From the sequence record PZ476263.1: a stretch of DNA of 64,000 bases. One strand, given 5' to 3'. Positions 23,652 to 64,000 of this stretch are shown here, one piece after another. The notes beneath the pieces were generated by a model, which did no database searches, was not told the DNA's origin, and saw only the letters and a program-made list of their open reading frames with translations. How positions within the stretch are numbered: the stretch's first letter is position 1; each line of letters starts with the position of its first letter. This stretch comes from a phage. The position numbers and the translations under genes are program-made.

Positions 23652-24875
23652 CACAATATGTTCGTTAAAGGTCGCAACTCTTTAACCGGGATCGTATACA
23701 CCTGAAGAAATATCTCTTCACACTTTCGAGTACGATTCCTGTTTCTTTTGCTACGTCACAGAAATCTTTCCCATCAAGTATCATTTTTGTTATCTCTAGT
23801 TCCAACTCTTCTTTAGTTTTGTTTCTTAACTTACTGACCCCAAAAGTTTTATCTTCGGCAAATTTACCGATAAAAAATCTAACTGTCGGTTTCTCTAAGT
23901 TTAGGATCTCACAAATCTTTAAAAGAGTCGCACCTTTCCACCATAAAGATCTTGCTTCTTCTGCAAGATGTTTCTTTTCTTCCACTTCAGAAACACATTT
24001 CCCCATGTCGAAAGTTTTTAAGTATCTTGCTGCAAAGTGCCTTTCTTGTCCAAGGTCCAGAGAGATTTTTGCATACGAATCACCTGCCAGATATCTTTTA
24101 TGGATGTGCAGATACATCTCTCCATAGTTATCAAAGCCGGATTGTTTTGCTCTATTATCTCTTTTTGCCATTGAACTTCTTTCAGATGCGATAGTTTTTA
24201 TGGACTCACCAAAAGAGTTTCCAATTGCATCTGGACTAGGACTCACCGCTGAAAAAGTATTATTAGTCATGTTATAGAATTCTGTATTGTTGGCTGCATC
24301 ATTCTCTAAAAGAACTTTTTCTTCGATTTCACGAAGGAGATCTCTTTTGTCTACAACTTCCAACACCTCAGCTACAAATCTATGACCACTTTTTAAATCC
24401 TTTTTCATATCTGGATTGGAAGAGGACCCAAGATAAGGTTTTCCACTCTTAATCGAGATTATTGTGGGGATTCCATCCACATCTATCACTTTGCATTCAC
24501 TTTTACTTCCGATATATTTGTTCGGGTATTCTTCTTTATCGATGTTTTTCAAGAGATAAACAATGTTCATGTATACGTCCTCCGCTGTATCTTTCAACAC
24601 AGTTCAGACTATATCTTTGACACACTAAAGGATAGCTGAACCAATCTACCCCTAATGTATCACAAACCACTTCGATTGTCTACGCTTACAATCTACGCCT
24701 TCCGGCTAGTCGTTGAACCTTCTACCTGTCTGGTAGCTTGGCTGCTGATTGCCCAATCCTTTAACTTTTTAAACCTTCGCTTTGTATTCCTACTCGCAGT
24801 GGTATAAAGGCTCTAAGGGGTTCCCAGCAATTCAATTTGTTTTATACTGAGGCAGCTTTAGTTTACCACAGTGTG
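23652..24875 (-). mobile_element. group I intron interrupting the DNA polymerase gene, carrying a GIY-YIG homing endonuclease ORF
   Basis: All four conserved core elements on - strand RNA: P AAUUGCUGGGAAC (rc of 24820-24832), Q AAUCAGCAGCC (rc of 24740-24750), R GUUCAACGACUAGCC (rc of 24704-24718), S AAGAUAUAGUCUGAAC (rc of 24602-24617); polymerase reading frame resumes after the inserted ORF; exact splice sites not resolved. Confidence 0.75.
23665..24600 (-). CDS. GIY-YIG family homing endonuclease (intron-encoded)
   Basis: 311 aa; N-terminal MNIVYLLKNI...NKYIGSKSE matches the GIY...YIG module; Lys-rich C-terminal half; RBS GGAGGA; located inside the intron downstream of core element S. Confidence 0.75.
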   Translation of the reverse strand: MLKDTAEDVYMNIVYLLKNIDKEEYPNKYIGSKSECKVIDVDGIPTIISIKSGKPYLGSSSNPDMKKDLKSGHRFVAEVLEVVDKRDLLREIEEKVLLENDAANNTEFYNMTNNTFSAVSPSPDAIGNSFGESIKTIASERSSMAKRDNRAKQSGFDNYGEMYLHIHKRYLAGDSYAKISLDLGQERHFAARYLKTFDMGKCVSEVEEKKHLAEEARSLWWKGATLLKICEILNLEKPTVRFFIGKFAEDKTFGVSKLRNKTKEELELEITKMILDGKDFCDVAKETGIVLESVKRYFFRCIRSRLKSCDL

Positions 24876-26594
24876 TTTACGACGGCCTGTATTCGTTATT
24901 CCAGTATAACGTGCAGGTAATTTACCGTCCACCGCAAGTCGAGGATGGTTTAACCAACCTGTATCTACTTTATCCTCTTTCAAAGGATCAAGAACACTTC
25001 GACGGTTACGAAGAGATAGCCATTTTACAATCTGCTTTGCCATATCACCATCGACTCGCTCAAGGTTAGGACAAAGGCCCTGCTGATCCTTAAGCTGCGG
25101 TGATGTTGGTAATGCTCTTGCCTTCTTCCTGAAGAACTTATACATCTTCTCTTTATCTTGCCACTGCTTACCACTGATACCTAAACTTTTCAGAATCAGA
25201 TCGCGATATTCAGTCTGGTCAAGATCATCAATGTATTGACGAACAATGATATCGACTTCGTTATCGGGACGTTGTTTCTTAAACTGGTCCTTCGTCGCAT
25301 CTTTGGTTCGCCACAATGTTGGGACCCAACCCGCATCACGAATAAGGAATTTTTTAACGTCATCCTGATTACCAATACGCATCGGAATCATAATATCCGG
25401 CATCTTTTGATCTTTGATATCCATCAATGCACGGGCCATGTCTTCCGGTGGCAAAGGTACAAGATTTTCCTTTTTCACATTTTGAGAACGAATAAATTCA
25501 GCCATTTTGGATTCATCTTCTACACCATGCTCTACACAATACTTAATTGCAGCAGATGTGAGTGAACCATCGCCCTTAAACGGCTTACTTGGAGCGCCTT
25601 TAAATTCAAGAGCTTCCCAATTCACATTGTAACCTAACTTCTCTAACCATTTCCAGCCCGTACCAGAAAGAGATCCATCTCCTTTAAACGGCTTAGACGG
25701 GAAAGTAGGCTGTGCTGACTTGGACATCTCTTTCTTCGGCAGCTTTGGTTCAACCTCTTCTTCAATTTCTTTCATCATCGTATCAATACGATCACGCAAA
25801 GCTAAACCTTTCTCCACGTCGAAAGTAACACCCTGAATTTCTTGCTCAACCATCAAATAGTCGGTAAGCATACCTCGACGCAAGGCATTCTTCCAATTGA
25901 TGAGCTTCATCTTCTTCGGATCTTTGTCCGATTCATCTTTGTACATGAAACGTTTATCATCCGGCATAGAGTCACATGAAATTTCTTTCATGAGGGCATC
26001 CCATACCATTTCGTTGATGATTACGTCTTCAATAATACGATCACAATATTTCCACAAAGGGAGTCCACGCCAATCTTCGATTGCTACCTTCTGGTTTGCT
26101 ACTCGCATACCCCAAGCTTCAAGTCCATGAGGGCCTACAGGCTTCATTTTACCTGTAACTGGGTTCTTTACCATCTCGGGACAACCGCGCGGCAGAGGGC
26201 GATCTGGATACAGTGTACGGGACATTGAAAGGGTATCGAAGATGTTAACTTGTTTACCATTGATAGTCCCCATGCAACCAGGGTCTGCAAACATATCGTA
26301 TGTTGTTCCAAACATCTTTTTAAACAGCTGTAAGTCATAGCCGAAGATATTATGGATAGCAACAGCTTTTGGTTCAGTCACAAACCACTCATTAAGTTCT
26401 TCCAACTTACGGATCTTAAAGTTCTTACCTTTGGATTGAATAAACTTAACCGCTTGCTCGTAGCCTTCGCGGTTCGGATCGATAAAAATATTCCAATTGT
26501 CCTTTTTGTACTCTTTAAAAAGAACACAGTGAACAAGATCAACTTCTGTCAACAGGCCGTTAGCCTCTGCATCTCCAATAAACAAACCTTTCAT
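24858..26594 (-). CDS. DNA polymerase, family A (T7 gp5-like), 5' exon: 3'-5' exonuclease domain plus N-terminal part of polymerase domain
   Basis: FIGDAEANGL (Exo I), GPHGLEAWGMRV and GWVPT match T7 gp5 landmarks as recalled; ends ...TGRRKHTVVN just before the conserved PNL(Q)xIP region; last codons and stop probably intron-encoded. Confidence 0.85.
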   Translation of the reverse strand: MKGLFIGDAEANGLLTEVDLVHCVLFKEYKKDNWNIFIDPNREGYEQAVKFIQSKGKNFKIRKLEELNEWFVTEPKAVAIHNIFGYDLQLFKKMFGTTYDMFADPGCMGTINGKQVNIFDTLSMSRTLYPDRPLPRGCPEMVKNPVTGKMKPVGPHGLEAWGMRVANQKVAIEDWRGLPLWKYCDRIIEDVIINEMVWDALMKEISCDSMPDDKRFMYKDESDKDPKKMKLINWKNALRRGMLTDYLMVEQEIQGVTFDVEKGLALRDRIDTMMKEIEEEVEPKLPKKEMSKSAQPTFPSKPFKGDGSLSGTGWKWLEKLGYNVNWEALEFKGAPSKPFKGDGSLTSAAIKYCVEHGVEDESKMAEFIRSQNVKKENLVPLPPEDMARALMDIKDQKMPDIMIPMRIGNQDDVKKFLIRDAGWVPTLWRTKDATKDQFKKQRPDNEVDIIVRQYIDDLDQTEYRDLILKSLGISGKQWQDKEKMYKFFRKKARALPTSPQLKDQQGLCPNLERVDGDMAKQIVKWLSLRNRRSVLDPLKEDKVDTGWLNHPRLAVDGKLPARYTGITNTGRRKHTVVN

Positions 26595-42574: not shown

Positions 42575-42934
42575 TTAATCAACCCTCTTAAAGTAAACCC
42601 TAACCTTAACGACATCAAGAATCTTATTGCTATTCCCGCCGCAATTTTGTAGTCGACGACGTTTATCATCGGCTTCACTGTAGTCCCCAAATAAGTAAAA
42701 ATCTTTTCCAATTGTGGGGATATTATCCTGACCACGAATGGCTAATGCATATTTAATGCCGTCGCCTTCGATAAGTCCACGACTTACTTGTTTACTTACC
42801 CATTTCTCAAACTCCTTTGGTGTGGTGTCTTCAATCTCTTTGTAACCTTCCATTCCCCAAAGCTTATCCCAAAACTTGTCTTCAATCAAGATAATTTTAT
42901 CTTTTAATTTCTTAATGCTATTTTTAATCTTCAT
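42575..42934 (-). CDS. hypothetical protein
   Basis: 119-aa ORF. Confidence 0.5.
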   Translation of the reverse strand: MKIKNSIKKLKDKIILIEDKFWDKLWGMEGYKEIEDTTPKEFEKWVSKQVSRGLIEGDGIKYALAIRGQDNIPTIGKDFYLFGDYSEADDKRRRLQNCGGNSNKILDVVKVRVYFKRVD

Positions 42935-43421
42935 CTATAATTTTCATCCAACTTGGTTTAGAGAATCCCATCGCAAGAGTATCAATCTCTTGCTTAGCCT
43001 TTTGTTCTATTACATTTTGCAATACGATTTCGTTTGCCTCTGGTAAACTAGAATACGCTTCTCTGATTACCCTGTCAAACTTTTCCTTCATCTTTTTAAC
43101 TTCAACCTTAATTTCTACTTCGTCCATTGCATCTTTACAAACACAACAATGACCCTTAAAGTTTAATGTTGACCTGTCTTGTATTGGGAGTGCCACTCTC
43201 CCACAATAAGCACATACGGGAGTACCATAATCACCGATCATCACTGTTTTTGTGGGACGCAAACCAGTTTTAGTAGGGTTCCAGTCAGAAACCCAACCAT
43301 CTTTTCCATAAAGAGTGGAAAAGAAAGGGTATGCTCTTTCATCTACATGATCTTCATCTTTATTTTTCGTCTTTCCTAAGAATTTTATCATCTTCGTATC
43401 CTCGTCGTTTTGATGATTCAA
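42924..43421 (-). CDS. hypothetical protein with Cys-rich zinc-finger-like motif; first gene of leftward block
   Basis: 165 aa; CAYCGR...CCVCKD. Confidence 0.5.
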   Translation of the reverse strand: MNHQNDEDTKMIKFLGKTKNKDEDHVDERAYPFFSTLYGKDGWVSDWNPTKTGLRPTKTVMIGDYGTPVCAYCGRVALPIQDRSTLNFKGHCCVCKDAMDEVEIKVEVKKMKEKFDRVIREAYSSLPEANEIVLQNVIEQKAKQEIDTLAMGFSKPSWMKIIDED

Positions 43422-43449
43422 ATTTACGAGAACTTGAGGGAGAAGTCAA
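43421..43449 (-). promoter_or_regulatory. sigma70-like promoter for leftward block
   Basis: On - strand TTGACT (rc 43444-43449), 17-nt spacer, TAAATT (rc 43421-43426); spacer contains the GAACTTGAGGG motif also repeated at 51.3-51.5 kb. Confidence 0.5.
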
Positions 43450-50218: not shown

Positions 50219-51031
50219 ATGGCACTCGGATTTGATCCTTTAGTACTTTACGGCATTGTTGAACCATCAACATACAAAACTAACTTTCTTCCTGACGAAC
50301 CGGATACCAAATACTATGTCAAATGTGTAGACGAGATCATAAGAGATGTGGAAAATGAAAACTACGCTGATGCAATCACAGACCTTAATTCTTTGCGTAG
50401 CGACCTTGACATGGGATCTGAACTTACTGACTATATAAATGCAAGTAATGACGCTATCAACAAATTCCACACGGTAATTAAAGATTTGGTTTTAACATAC
50501 GAAGATCTCGATAAGGAGAAATTAACTAAGACTTCCGCCTTGCAATTTATTGAAAGGGTCGGTGAACTACTTGATGAAATCAAACCTGACAGTATTGGCA
50601 TGTCTGCATGGGGTTACTTAGACTCAGATGCAAGAACCTTTGCCCAAACGTTACCTGGATTAAAGCGAGCTAATTTCAGATGGGATCCTGAGAGCGATTG
50701 CTATGTTTCAACAATACATAATAACCATACAAGAGGCTCACTCTTTGCAAAGATCTACCCTAATGGCGACCTGTACATCAATGATCACTTTAATGAAACA
50801 TCTTTACTTTTCAAAAAAGAGAAACAAGGGTATGCCTATAGCTACTTGCTTTACTTCTCAACAAAGGATAAGAAGTTTGGGCCTCACTACGATACTAAAG
50901 TTTTCAAGGAATATTTTGAAGACTGGACACAGCCTACAGACGAAGAGATTTTACTGTTCAATGCAACTATGTCTTATGAGCACGACTTTAGTATCTTTAA
51001 GTATCTTGCTGGAGAGGAATTCGATATTTGA
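50219..51031 (+). CDS. hypothetical protein
   Basis: 270-aa ORF. Confidence 0.55.
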   Translation: MALGFDPLVLYGIVEPSTYKTNFLPDEPDTKYYVKCVDEIIRDVENENYADAITDLNSLRSDLDMGSELTDYINASNDAINKFHTVIKDLVLTYEDLDKEKLTKTSALQFIERVGELLDEIKPDSIGMSAWGYLDSDARTFAQTLPGLKRANFRWDPESDCYVSTIHNNHTRGSLFAKIYPNGDLYINDHFNETSLLFKKEKQGYAYSYLLYFSTKDKKFGPHYDTKVFKEYFEDWTQPTDEEILLFNATMSYEHDFSIFKYLAGEEFDI

Positions 51032-51163
51032 TATTTGATCTCGGGTTGATTTTCAGATTTCAAAGTCAAATTGAAATTGAGATATTTGTCCGTGATATTT
51101 GTTTTGTTTTAGAAAATCAGATTTCAAATTGAAAAATGAATTTGAGATATGAAAGTAGACAAT

Positions 51164-51190
51164 GAGAGGCCAATGGCCTCTTTTCTTTTT
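51164..51190 (+). terminator. rho-independent terminator
   Basis: GAGGCC-aat-GGCCTC hairpin followed by TTTTCTTTTT. Confidence 0.7.
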
Positions 51191-51329
51191 GATACGGAAC
51201 CTATACTTACTAACCCTCCACGTACACGATCCGATAACGCCCCTATGCAAACATACGACAATTAATGTATGACTTACACAACCTCCTTAATCAATTAAAA
51301 TAGTCAAGCTTAAGACCCTAAAAAATTTT

Positions 51330-51520
51330 GAGAACTTGAGGGCTTTTTCATTTTCCAGATCGTATTTTCGATTACTCGAACGAGAACTTGAGAGCTTTCT
51401 CACTAGAAAATTTGGAACTTGAGGGCTTTTTCATTTTTGAGATCGTATTCTGGATTGAGAACTTGAGCTACAGGCCAGATACTTGAGGGCTTTTTCATTT
51501 TCCAAATCGTATTTTGAATT
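51330..51520. repeat. iteron-like direct repeats (five copies of GAACTTGAG(G/A)GCTTT...)
   Basis: Units at about 51330, 51381, 51414, 51457 and 51481; three share the longer form ACTTGAGGGCTTTTTCATTTT(C/T)(C/G)A(G/A)ATCGTATT; inside an ~800-bp ORF-free region. Confidence 0.6.
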
Positions 51521-51855
51521 GAAAAATTTTTCATATGCATAAAATTATATGCATGTCAAGGTCTGGAGGGATAAAATTTTACAGAGTTGAGAATTATTCT
51601 CATTTGCAGAATAGCGGGCAGGGGTGGTGATTATTTCGTGAAACCGTCCTCATCACCATGAATGTATAATAGCACCGTTCAGCTCAAGATTGCAAGAGGT
51701 ATTTTAATTTATTTTTCAATAAATTTTAAACGAATTACCGGCGATCAACCTTACATCTGGTCGCCCAGTATGTTAGCCCCGCCTTTACGCCGTGGGGTGG
51801 CGCTTCCTCTTCTGTATGTAAAACAATATAAGCCCGATCCTTGGGCTTGTCAAGA

Positions 51856-52122
51856 TTATTTTTTGTTTTCTTGCCAGGCTAGGACACCTAACCAGAAAAA
51901 GACGTTCCCTTTCTCGACCTTAGGTATATTACTTTCACCGCCACCGCTTTGCATCCATTCCGCACCGTTATTATACATCTCAAGCTCATAAAGATCGGTT
52001 ATCTTTGTATCCTTAAGGTTAAGGATTGTTTCAACCTTTAAGCCTGTTGCGCTCGCCACTTGGTGGACCGTTCCGCCTTGCCATTTTAAAGCGTGCATAA
52101 GGTGTAGTGTAGTAGTTGTCAT
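51856..52122 (-). CDS. putative HTH DNA-binding regulator
   Basis: 88 aa; helix-turn-helix-like TVHQVASATGLKVETILNL; diverges from rightward small-gene cluster. Confidence 0.45.
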   Translation of the reverse strand: MTTTTLHLMHALKWQGGTVHQVASATGLKVETILNLKDTKITDLYELEMYNNGAEWMQSGGGESNIPKVEKGNVFFWLGVLAWQENKK

Positions 52123-52329
52123 GTTGTGTTGCCCTTTCTTCTATTGTGCGCCCTAGTTGACGCGGTAAAAAGATATTAACTCTTCTTCCTATATAAAGCA
52201 AGTAAAAAGAAACATAAAAAAGATTGAAAATGTTGTTGACGTAGGAAAAAGGTTGGCGTAGTATTCATCTCATCGAACGGCGGCACAACTTAACGCCTAC
52301 ATTAATTAACGTTACTCACTAAGGGGTAA

Positions 52330-62986: not shown

Positions 62987-63278
62987 GATTATCTAATCAT
63001 CAATACCTATAAAATCTTATACTATATCACAATAGCTTTTCCCTTGTCCACAATAATTATGAAAGAGAACCATTGCCAGAATATCGAGAGGGTGGCGCGA
63101 CCGTAGGGAGCGACACTATAAAACGAGTATACCCTCCTACCGCTATGCGGTCATCGGTGATAACCGATATCGTTACACGCTATCTGTTCTCTTCGTTTCC
63201 TCGTTTTATAGTGTCTATCAGTTAAACAAAATTAGTCTTTGTCAATTATTATTTCACTTATTCCCAAAATAAATTGGC

Positions 63279-63362
63279 TGTAGTTACTATTGAATGTAGC
63301 AATAGTTCAAATGATTGTAGTAATAGTTCAACTGAATGTAGTAATAGTTAAAATGATTGTAT
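63279..63362. repeat. tandem 21-bp direct repeats (about 3.5 copies)
   Basis: tgaatgtagcaatagttcaaa / tgattgtagtaatagttcaac / tgaatgtagtaatagttaaaa / tgattgtat. Confidence 0.7.
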
Positions 63363-64000
63363 ATTCACTTTATTTGAATATGTAATCAATAGGGTTGCTT
63401 ATACCATAGATGATTAGTAGTGTCAACAGGTAATTATTGTTCGCAAAGAGATAGAGATTGTTTATTCTTTGTCCACAATGAAGGTCGTAAGGGCACTTAT
63501 AGCATGGTTTTCTTTACCTTTGCTTGATAAAGCACGCTTCTCTCTTCTTGTCAAATAAAAATTTATTTTTTCTTTCTTGCCAGAATATCGAGGGTGACTT
63601 GCCCCAATGTTGGGAGGGCCGTCGGTCGTGGAATCTATCAAGTTGGAATGATTCGACCTGCAACCTTTATTGTTGGGATAGTCACGTCTGTAATCGTCCC
63701 AAACCAGGCGGGGCGCGGAGTAGGGGAGTAGTCGGGTCGTCAGTCAATCCATTTTGGCAACTGGTCCGGCTTAGTGCGTATAAGTTGTATTATGTTAAAT
63801 GCAGATCGAAATCGGTATTCTAAATCAGATTCAGAAGTCAATAGAAATCTTTAACTTTATTGTTGGAAGGGCACAACATTTTTCTTGACAAGTCGAATCA
63901 AAGATGTATTGTGGATTGAAAATAAATGAAGATAATGCTTGACTTCTTGGATATTTTGAAAACATCGGACCCCCCTCCCCCTCCCCCGAGAGCGGCGTGC

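Follow-up and report, generated by a model that had tools for sequence, protein, structure and literature searches.

The phage DNA of sequence record PZ476263.1, a stretch of 64,000 nucleotides (the window), contains a 1.3-kb locus poor in open reading frames (ORFs) at 51032-52329, and the subject of this study is an array of five direct repeats within it. The repeats are most likely binding sites for a lineage-specific phage DNA-binding protein that would also occupy the promoter of the replication operon at 43.4 kb. Our working interpretation, held tentatively, is that the array is an iteron-type, origin-like element, possibly assisted by transcription, whose binder also controls the replication-operon promoter. 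The original prediction, made from the letters of the sequence, had offered either an origin with iterons or a cluster of regulator sites. Its premise that a protein binds here appears sound, given the invariant repeat cores, the failure of a coding explanation and the co-variation of array and promoter described below; as for its two options, an origin is what we cautiously favour, and an operator is possible though doubtful.

The repeat array and a core copy at the replication-operon promoter

The source of the window is a Vequintavirinae-like myovirus of E. coli, as judged by its matches to large E. coli myoviruses. The closest records are W70, A73, A7_1, A5-4, UPEC06 and LTH01, all unclassified Vequintavirinae; Phapecoctavirus and Justusliebigvirus phages also match part of the region. 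The array (51330-51528, + strand; module 2) was delimited by a repeat search, enrichment and an alignment of six phages (alignment A1). It consists of five + strand copies of GAACTTGAG(G/A)GC at 51332-51490, with cores starting at 51332 (GAACTTGAGGGC), 51384 (GAACTTGAGAGC), 51415 (GAACTTGAGGGC), 51459 (a partial copy, GAACTTGAG-cta) and 51479 (atACTTGAGGGC), that is, with start-to-start spacings of 52, 31, 44 and 20 nt. The core measures 12 nt and the repeat unit 21 nt. Three copies reach 48 nt (51334-51381, 51417-51464 and 51481-51528; unit ACTTGAGGGCTTTTTCATTTTCCAGATCGTATTTT...), their added tail being TTTTTCATTTTCCAGATCGTATTTT, and the other two of the five have no tail. Iteron origins carry at least 3 repeats of ~17-22 bp, and the five copies here all share one orientation.

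The five spaced copies of the original prediction, three of them long, were thus all recovered where it had placed them, far above shuffle expectation. The 13-mer ACTTGAGRGCTTT, with at most 1 mismatch, has 4 matches in the 64 kb, all within the array (0.20 expected; no shuffle gave 4). At the same stringency the 12-mer GAACTTGAGRGS has 5 matches (0.74 expected; 0/100 shuffles gave 5), the fifth being a remote copy at 43430.

In the six-phage alignment the cores are invariant and the spacers between them vary. A 33-nt stretch across copies 4 and 5 is invariant as well, and a ~140-nt stretch to the left of the array is essentially unconserved. The 270-amino-acid (270-aa) gene immediately upstream (50219-51031, + strand) encodes a protein only 27% identical to its W70 counterpart, compared to a DNA identity of ~78-82% for the adjoining non-coding block. 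The invariance of the cores and this difference in identity (78-82% vs. 27%) suggest that selection acts on the DNA motifs themselves. The same comparison marks a sharp mosaic boundary, between 27% protein identity at 50219-51031 and ~80% DNA identity to W70 at 51320-52285, which suggests either a strong constraint on the non-coding block or its recent exchange.

Another way to account for the repeats would be a small, repetitive gene of 79 aa on the minus strand. A 79-codon open frame does cover the array in W70, A7_1, A73 and LTH01, and is annotated there. In the window, however, a 1-nt deletion and an in-frame stop break it into pieces of 45 and 38 codons. The 79-codon frame starts with TTG, lacks a ribosome-binding site and has no counterpart in other genera, and substitutions in the six-phage alignment favour the gaps between cores over third codon positions. 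We find the coding explanation scarcely credible. Nor did the locus match a known RNA: no tRNA or other known RNA was found with ARAGORN and Rfam, no Rfam 15 family reached its gathering threshold, and a permissive scan gave only chance-level hits (E > 1).

The remote copy of the core leads to a promoter and to the gene behind it:

43421-43449, - strand: promoter-like site TTGACT-N17-TAAATT with a core copy in its spacer (promoter and motif match)
42924-43421, - strand: first gene of the leftward operon, encoding a CxxC...HCCxC protein, phrog_13698 (sequence pattern, orthologues)

The original prediction had noted the core in the spacer of this leftward promoter and was right to do so: the exact 11-mer GAACTTGAGGG lies at 43430-43440 (+ strand), within the 17-nt spacer of the minus-strand site running from 43449 to 43421, in a divergent gene junction 92 nt long. 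The homologous junctions of two relatives behave in the same way, each with its own sequence. W70 carries GAACTTGAGAGG, W70's own core, in the spacer of TTGATC-N17-TATAGT, and in KaOmega the spacer of TTGATT-N17-TATATT holds the quite different core of that phage, GGGTCTCGATCG. The junction flanks are conserved, with TATAC before the core and AGAAnTCAATACTTGA after it. The probability of each exact junction match by chance is 1.5e-5, 7.8e-6 and 2.1e-6, respectively, in the window, W70 and KaOmega, and none of the three junctions carries the core of another lineage. As the junctions of three lineages match their own cores, a single trans-acting, sequence-specific factor probably reads both array and promoter.

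The operon under the 43.4-kb promoter includes replication genes, according to the W70 annotation and the gene map of the window, and ends in primase/helicase and DNA polymerase. A repeat-related operator at the promoter of replication genes, as expected of an iteron origin, is therefore present in the window, W70 and KaOmega. The protein encoded by the first gene of the operon has a CxxC...HCCxC motif resembling a zinc finger, as read from the sequence pattern, and is a reasonable, putative candidate for a self-regulating repeat binder. Its orthologues W70_37 and KaOmega gp116 are ~40% identical, and the protein has no match in Pfam or the PDB. The phrog_13698 family is common to Certrevirus, the W70 group, phAPEC8-type and Seunavirus phages, and its N-terminal half also occurs in Pseudomonas phages of the PAK_P3/KPP10 type.

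A conserved modular cassette

The original prediction had missed that the region is, by sequence comparison, a deeply conserved multi-module element with Fur-box-like palindromes. A syntenic non-coding region of 1.0-1.3 kb, downstream of the homologue of the 270-aa gene or of its replacement, occurs in several genera, namely Certrevirus (KaOmega, CR3, CB7), Vequintavirus (Bas51, Bas54), Seunavirus (EC152, RUS_R7) and Mydovirus. The Stephanstirmvirinae (SD2, phiWec179, phAPEC8) hold the region in analogous form, as do the terminal repeats of T5-like phages, and the KaOmega region used as query matched 407 phage records. The order of its parts is fixed: module 1 (M1), short repeats GATATTTG and CAGATTTCA; a variable spacer; module 2 (M2), 3-5 direct repeats; an AT-rich stretch; M3, 1-6 palindromes of the type AATGAGAATnATTCTCATT; M4, TTTGCAGAATAGCGGGCAGG followed by a hairpin; an extended -10 leftward promoter; M5, a GC-rich element of ~95 nt; and a strong rightward promoter followed by small early-type genes. 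In the window these and neighbouring features are as follows:

51029-51150, + strand: M1, AT-rich short repeats GATATTTG, TCAGATTTCA and ATTTGAGATAT (repeat families D3 and D6)
51164-51192, + strand: terminator-like hairpin GAGAGGCCAATGGCCTCTT followed by a T-run (terminator scan)
51193-51329: spacer between M1 and the array, the least conserved part of alignment A1
51330-51528, + strand: M2, the five direct repeats
51495-51565: AT-rich stretch from the last repeat to the palindrome (AT profile, invariant columns)
51588-51602: Fur-box-like palindrome TGAGAATTATTCTCA (Fur motif comparison; invariant in the six-phage alignment)
51603-51660: ultra-conserved block TTTGCAGAATAGCGGGCAGGGG and hairpin with arms at 51623-51630 and 51650-51657 (alignments A1 and A3)
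51666-51695, - strand: leftward sigma-70-type promoter TTGCAA-N18-(TGc)TATTAT, with an extended -10 (promoter scan)
51731-51822: M5, GC-rich element ACCGGCGATC...GTTAGCCCCGCCTTTACGCCGTGGGGTGGCG (alignment A3)
51830-51848, - strand: intrinsic terminator of the 88-aa gene (terminator scan)
51856-52122, - strand: 88-aa gene, phrog_19316 (PHROG match, E 2e-43; 149 phage records)
52236-52264, + strand: rightward sigma-70-type promoter TTGACG-N17-TAGTAT (promoter scan; conserved in relatives)

The cores of M2 differ between lineages:

Window: GAACTTGAGGGC
W70 group: GAACTTGAGAGG
Certrevirus: GGGTCTCGATCG
Vequintavirus: AGTACTCGATCTG
Seunavirus: GGTTCTCGATCG

Despite these differing cores, the long copies of M2 share a common tail across lineages, TTTTTC-N7-8-GATCGTATT(C/T)T. 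The AT-rich short repeats that the original prediction had placed before the array are likewise present and conserved in relatives. They begin directly after the stop codon of the 270-aa gene and include a 42-nt unit present twice, 64 nt apart; their motifs are invariant in the six-phage alignment and recur in Certrevirus, Seunavirus and Vequintavirus. The rightward operon upstream probably terminates at the hairpin at 51164-51192, which the W70 group lacks at precisely this position and whose Bas54 equivalent lies inside M1.

To the right of the array, positions 51500-51560 are 78-80% A+T and abut the last repeat, the adjacency seen in iteron origins. With the invariant TGTCAAGGTCT (51554-51564) at its end, the AT-rich stretch could serve as a DNA-unwinding element or as a promoter zone. 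The block at 51603-51660 is nearly invariant in A1 and ~85% identical even in rV5-type phages. The leftward promoter beyond it (51695 to 51666), if active as its sequence predicts, would transcribe the hairpin, the palindrome, the AT-rich stretch and the repeats. Equivalent sites (TTGnnn-N16-18-TGcTATTAT or TATTCT), read by eye rather than by formal scan, occur in W70, SD2, phiWec179, RUS_R7 and EC152.

Transposon insertions in the Vequintavirus Bas54 bear directly on the syntenic segment. Bas54 was confirmed to be phage MaxBurger, and the mapping of its ORFs onto the locus was checked; we read the columns of the HIDEN-SEQ table as TA sites, sites hit and fraction hit. In these data (HIDEN-SEQ preprint, 10.1101/2025.11.20.689424), bas54_0100, which lies over repeats 1-2, was hit at 1/3 TA sites (table call NA), bas54_0101, covering the tail of repeat 3 and the AT-rich stretch, at 0/11 (table call Essential), and bas54_0102, from the palindromes and M4 onward, at 5/15, with a strong fitness defect. 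In the neighbouring genes 0093-0099 and 0104-0109, nearly all TA sites were hit (10.1101/2025.11.20.689424). The insertion-free stretch corresponds to about 51495-51585 of the window, with 78-80% A+T. The three annotated ORFs, bas54_0100 to bas54_0102, lie at L017:666-1255, and their Bas51 counterpart at L015:2709-3313. We consider that bas54_0101 and bas54_0102 are probably not genes and that their essentiality more likely reports a cis-acting DNA element. By extension from this syntenic segment, the conserved cassette is likely to act in cis and to be needed for phage growth.

The palindrome of the window (51588-51602) matches the Fur 7-1-7 motif TGATAATnATTATCA at 12/14 positions and the 19-mer consensus at 14/19. 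The corresponding sites of relatives match at 15-17/19 (2-4 mismatches), with 1-6 matches per region vs. 0.01-0.15 in shuffles. Related phages have arrays of 3-6 copies, compared to one in the window, which on sequence comparison is the single survivor of their multi-copy array. Such arrays are found in Certrevirus, Stephanstirmvirinae, Vequintavirus and T5-like phages; examples of the AATGAGAATnATTCTCATT type lie at L010:1519-1638 in KaOmega, L007:2403-2518 in SD2, L017:940-1135 in Bas54 and L016:1495-1680 in Spc35. The true ligand of these palindromes could be a phage protein or a host protein other than Fur. The array gives BLAST matches to T5-like phages inside the left terminal repeat, where Spc35 has, in order, five direct repeats (GTCGGATTTGCACA), a hairpin, ~6 palindromes and then perfect DnaA boxes. 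The literature yielded no published link between Fur and phage T5 or T5-type phages, and the text of Davison (bioRxiv 10.1101/866236) does not appear to mention Fur.

Origin, operator or boundary

In the mechanism we propose, one phage-encoded, lineage-specific protein would load onto the five GAACTTGAG(G/A)GC repeats, and the neighbouring AT-rich stretch would then open, possibly aided by transcription from the conserved leftward promoter. The same protein would feed back on the replication-operon promoter at 43.4 kb, in a manner resembling plasmid Rep proteins that act through iterons and an operator. What the analysis shows is the repeats and how they are conserved, that array and promoter site co-vary, and that the Bas54 segment does not tolerate insertions; the binding of a protein, its identity, the opening of the DNA and the initiation of replication are inferred. 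The site in the promoter spacer points to a regulatory role, while the AT-rich, insertion-free stretch and the promoter firing into the array favour an origin-like element.

A number of observations weigh against an origin. What the promoter-spacer site directly attests is control of transcription rather than replication; in addition, the remote core copy was not found in 49 kb of Bas54, where gene order is different, nor convincingly in phAPEC8. No initiator was found, and neither neighbouring gene is a recognisable Rep. The 270-aa upstream gene was considered for this role and rejected, as it has no family assignment and is present in just 30 records. No DnaA box (TTWTNCACA) occurs at 51032-52329, compared to three in the Spc35 region, and in T5, which carries the analogous cassette in its terminal repeat, the replication origins were placed near the genome centre by early electron microscopy (as cited in Davison, bioRxiv 10.1101/866236). 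The cumulative GC-skew minimum and the transcription switch coincide with the divergent junction at ~43.4 kb, not with 51.4 kb, although the skew switch mostly follows gene orientation. The repeats of the window phage are helically phased (R = 0.92, P ~0.004), which was not seen in Certrevirus or T5-like arrays, and phasing was therefore dropped as a general property of the array. Clustering of GATC sites for SeqA fared no better as an origin mark, being enriched only where the core itself holds GATC, in Certrevirus (7 sites vs. 5 expected in the window). It should also be noted that the transposon data stem from another genus than the window phage, and that mariner samples TA sites only, so that the GC-richer cores were barely tested (3 sites in bas54_0100). 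Lastly, Bas54 has a separate insertion-free region of ~2.5 kb between genes 0134 and 0135 (10.1101/2025.11.20.689424). This is a different locus, ~10.6 kb to the right of the repeats, and could equally be the origin.

The closest competitor to an origin-like element is a purely transcriptional array, which would switch the 43.4-kb promoter and local promoters (51695 to 51666, and perhaps the early promoter), its five sites forming a high-affinity sink or a platform for cooperative repression with no part in replication. The sole site with a readable context co-varies with the array and occupies a promoter spacer, where repressors and MerR-type regulators classically bind; the array itself is flanked by a terminator and promoters where the early-gene block begins, with no initiator gene identified and no DnaA boxes at the locus. 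Regulator arrays are, however, seldom indispensable in rich medium, whereas the Bas54 segment is insertion-free and the early genes downstream of it are individually dispensable; a pure operator also accounts neither for the AT-rich stretch nor for the promoter directed at the array. We regard it as a real but doubtful possibility. Transcription enters differently if the three long repeats are tandem factor-dependent promoters. An activator would then bind the core, at about -40, TATT(T/C)T would act as a weak -10, and the product would be a non-coding RNA or a primer transcribed rightward into the AT-rich stretch. Tandem promoters with AT-rich DNA behind them also define the primary origin of T7. 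In most genera the conserved tail closes with GTATT(C/T)T, 19 nt past the core, and the hexamer TATTCT is also the -10 of other candidate promoters in the region. Set against this, the long repeats have no -35 element, the Bas54 hexamer is GATTTT, and two of the five copies lack the tail altogether. The promoter scan reported none of the three core-plus-tail units, its + strand matches in the array being just 51455-51483 and 51519-51548, which use other hexamers, and no RNA family or structure signal was found downstream of the long repeats. Tandem promoters are, in our view, improbable.

The remaining alternatives concern the ends of the genome. The only terminal repeat mapped in this group is the 514-bp repeat of KPP-1 (PMC9862379). 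The KPP-1 locus is 7.7 kb (5%) from it, across the early-gene block, and in the window and Bas54 the locus is 10.6-10.7 kb (8%) from a second conserved non-coding region, which starts at ~63.06 kb in the window. These distances suggest that the locus is no terminus and sits 5-8% in from the likely end. Several records do begin in or beside the locus (LTH01, EC152, RUS_R7 and phi1_175008), as might be expected of a packaging site or physical genome terminus. These starts are nevertheless arbitrary cuts of circular assemblies, with the sequence continuing at the other end of the record, and the 'attL/attR' of RUS_R7 is an 80-bp assembly overlap; together with the 7.7 kb separating the locus from the sole mapped terminal repeat, this makes a terminus here very hard to believe. 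A DNA-entry or early-region boundary, as the counterpart of T5 Repeat Region 3, would have host proteins that are there at the time of entry (Fur here, DnaA in T5) bind the incoming DNA, a few percent of the genome in from its end, until a phage early protein acting on the repeats releases or remodels it. In its favour are the BLAST matches of the palindrome array to T5-like left terminal repeats, the same module order in Spc35 (direct repeats, hairpin, Fur-like palindromes, genes), the block of small early-type genes between the locus and the likely end, and the distance to that end (5% in KPP-1 and ~8% to the second region in Bas54 and the window), since first-step-transfer DNA makes up 7.9% of the T5 genome. 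We know of no report of two-step injection in these myoviruses, however, and the role of an injection-stop signal (iss) is unproven even in T5. Of the palindromes only one is left in the window, which also lacks a DnaA box; the remote promoter site speaks for gene regulation, and the likeness to T5 could reflect convergence on the same host protein. We consider such a boundary unlikely, and also a broader version of it, in which an ancient cis cassette, 5-8% in from a genome end, would be common to T5-like siphoviruses and to large myoviruses of the rV5, phAPEC8 and Certrevirus types. Fur would bind its palindromes and a phage early protein the lineage-specific repeats beside them, and the two would gate DNA entry or the hand-over from early genes to replication, in the manner of the two-step transfer of T5. 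Were this true, the repeats of the window would be release or hand-over sites and infection would be tied to the iron status of the host.

Neighbouring genes and likeness to known systems

The window has a leftward block of genes between 43.4 kb and 12.7 kb, and from 43.5 kb onward its genes point rightward. The leftward block of W70, whose gene order is that of the window, carries the DNA polymerase and primase/helicase genes. A group I intron at 24585-24952 (- strand; Rfam RF00028, 73.8 bits, E 7e-17) lies between the large minus-strand ORFs 23665-24600 and 24858-26594 and probably interrupts a gene.

The leftward 88-aa gene was one part of the original prediction that survived only in half. 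The ORF is, on the evidence of its PHROG family, a genuine conserved gene, possibly starting at the internal Met9, as homologues align only from residue 11 on. Its label as a helix-turn-helix (HTH) protein was not borne out. A single-sequence model was unusable (predicted local distance difference test, pLDDT, 39), and the alignment-based model used in its place (pLDDT 95.3) had no HTH neighbour and no significant structural neighbour among solved structures in a fold search; a confident model with no significant neighbour (pLDDT 95) suggests that the protein may be a new small fold. The gene is missing from KaOmega, CR3 and Bas54, all of which keep the repeat architecture. Lacking an HTH structural neighbour and absent from several array-bearing lineages, the 88-aa protein is not supported as the repeat binder. 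Stem substitutions in its terminator (51830-51848) are compensatory between lineages.

The GC-rich element of ~95 nt beyond this terminator is nearly invariant across five genera and is present in KaOmega, which has no 88-aa gene. No RNA-structure signal was detected at 51731-51822 on either strand (RNAalifold; shuffle z-scores of ~-1.8 to +0.6), and the element has no Rfam match and no conserved ORF in frames read by eye. Of the tandem TTGACG promoter-like sites proposed before the rightward genes, the one at 52236-52264 has a usable -10 and the other hexamer has no -10 partner. The former is preceded by an A-rich stretch and heads ~10.7 kb of small early-type genes.

A second ORF-poor region at 63062-64000, which continues past the end of the window, is 91-95% identical to W70 (L022:41012-41850), compared to ~76% for the genes between it and the 51-kb locus. 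It corresponds in position to the Bas54 insertion-free region 92785-95298 (~2.5 kb), is probably the counterpart of the mapped terminal-repeat region of KPP-1, and may hold the genome ends or the packaging site. Some public records bear doubtful labels, among them the MG0656xx records ('Campylobacter phage' C3, B15, A110a and others) and PQ002170.1. Several of those labelled as Campylobacter phages are near-identical at the locus to E. coli rV5- or phAPEC8-type phages, and RUS_R7 is filed under Demerecviridae while its locus and length resemble Seunavirus. These odd Campylobacter and Demerecviridae assignments are probably record labelling problems.

Phages of the rV5, phAPEC8 and Certrevirus groups are in wide use in therapy cocktails, and the literature yielded nothing on an origin or on repeats in them. 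Iteron and operator arrays are already known as a kind of element, and the T5 counterpart has been described; we found no earlier description of the cassette in rV5, phAPEC8 and Certrevirus phages, of the co-variation between array and promoter, or of the Fur-like arrays. A segment listed as an 'essential hypothetical gene' in a transposon screen is better read as a cis-acting DNA element. Three lineages with three cores, each matched at its replication-operon promoter, together with a candidate binder, amount to a testable protein-DNA code. For engineering, the region is unsuitable as an insertion site, and core swaps could yield orthogonal control elements.

The cassette also ties these phages to the 50-year-old 'injection stop' puzzle of the T5 terminal repeat. 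Repeat Region 3 of T5 is better conserved than nearby ORFs and was proposed to be the injection-stop signal (Davison, bioRxiv 10.1101/866236). Like that region, the cassette is an ORF-poor 1-1.2 kb conserved above the neighbouring genes, with direct repeats followed by AATGAGAATnATTCTCATT-type palindromes in the same order as counted from the closer end of the genome, and lying a similar fraction of the genome away from it. The T5 copy, however, lies within a ~10-kb terminal repeat and has paired DnaA boxes where the window has none; the window has just one palindrome, the repeat cores are unrelated, and siphovirus and myovirus families are being compared. The palindromes themselves resemble E. 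coli Fur boxes (GATAATGATAATCATTATC), with sites in relatives that overlap or stand in tandem as in natural Fur operators. They differ in their setting, the non-coding region of a virulent phage rather than an iron-uptake promoter, and in a systematic, symmetric T-to-G change (GAGAAT).

With transcription-primed origins (T7 primary, T4 oriF/oriG) the locus shares a promoter aimed into an AT-rich stretch, in non-coding DNA close to genes of the early or middle class. A repeat array is not required at those origins, and the promoter of the window is of the sigma-70 type and has palindromes between it and the AT-rich stretch. Compared to iteron origins (plasmids P1, F, pSC101 and R6K; lambda ori/O; P4 ori/crr), the array has no recognisable Rep, O or alpha-type initiator beside it and no DnaA boxes, Fur-box-like palindromes taking the place of the usual IHF/DnaA sites. 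Its remote site is a single direct copy rather than an inverted half-repeat operator. What it has in common with these origins are same-orientation repeats of ~20 bp with variable spacing, an adjacent AT-rich stretch, repeats that are lineage-specific at a conserved position, and an extra repeat copy over the promoter that governs the replication genes.

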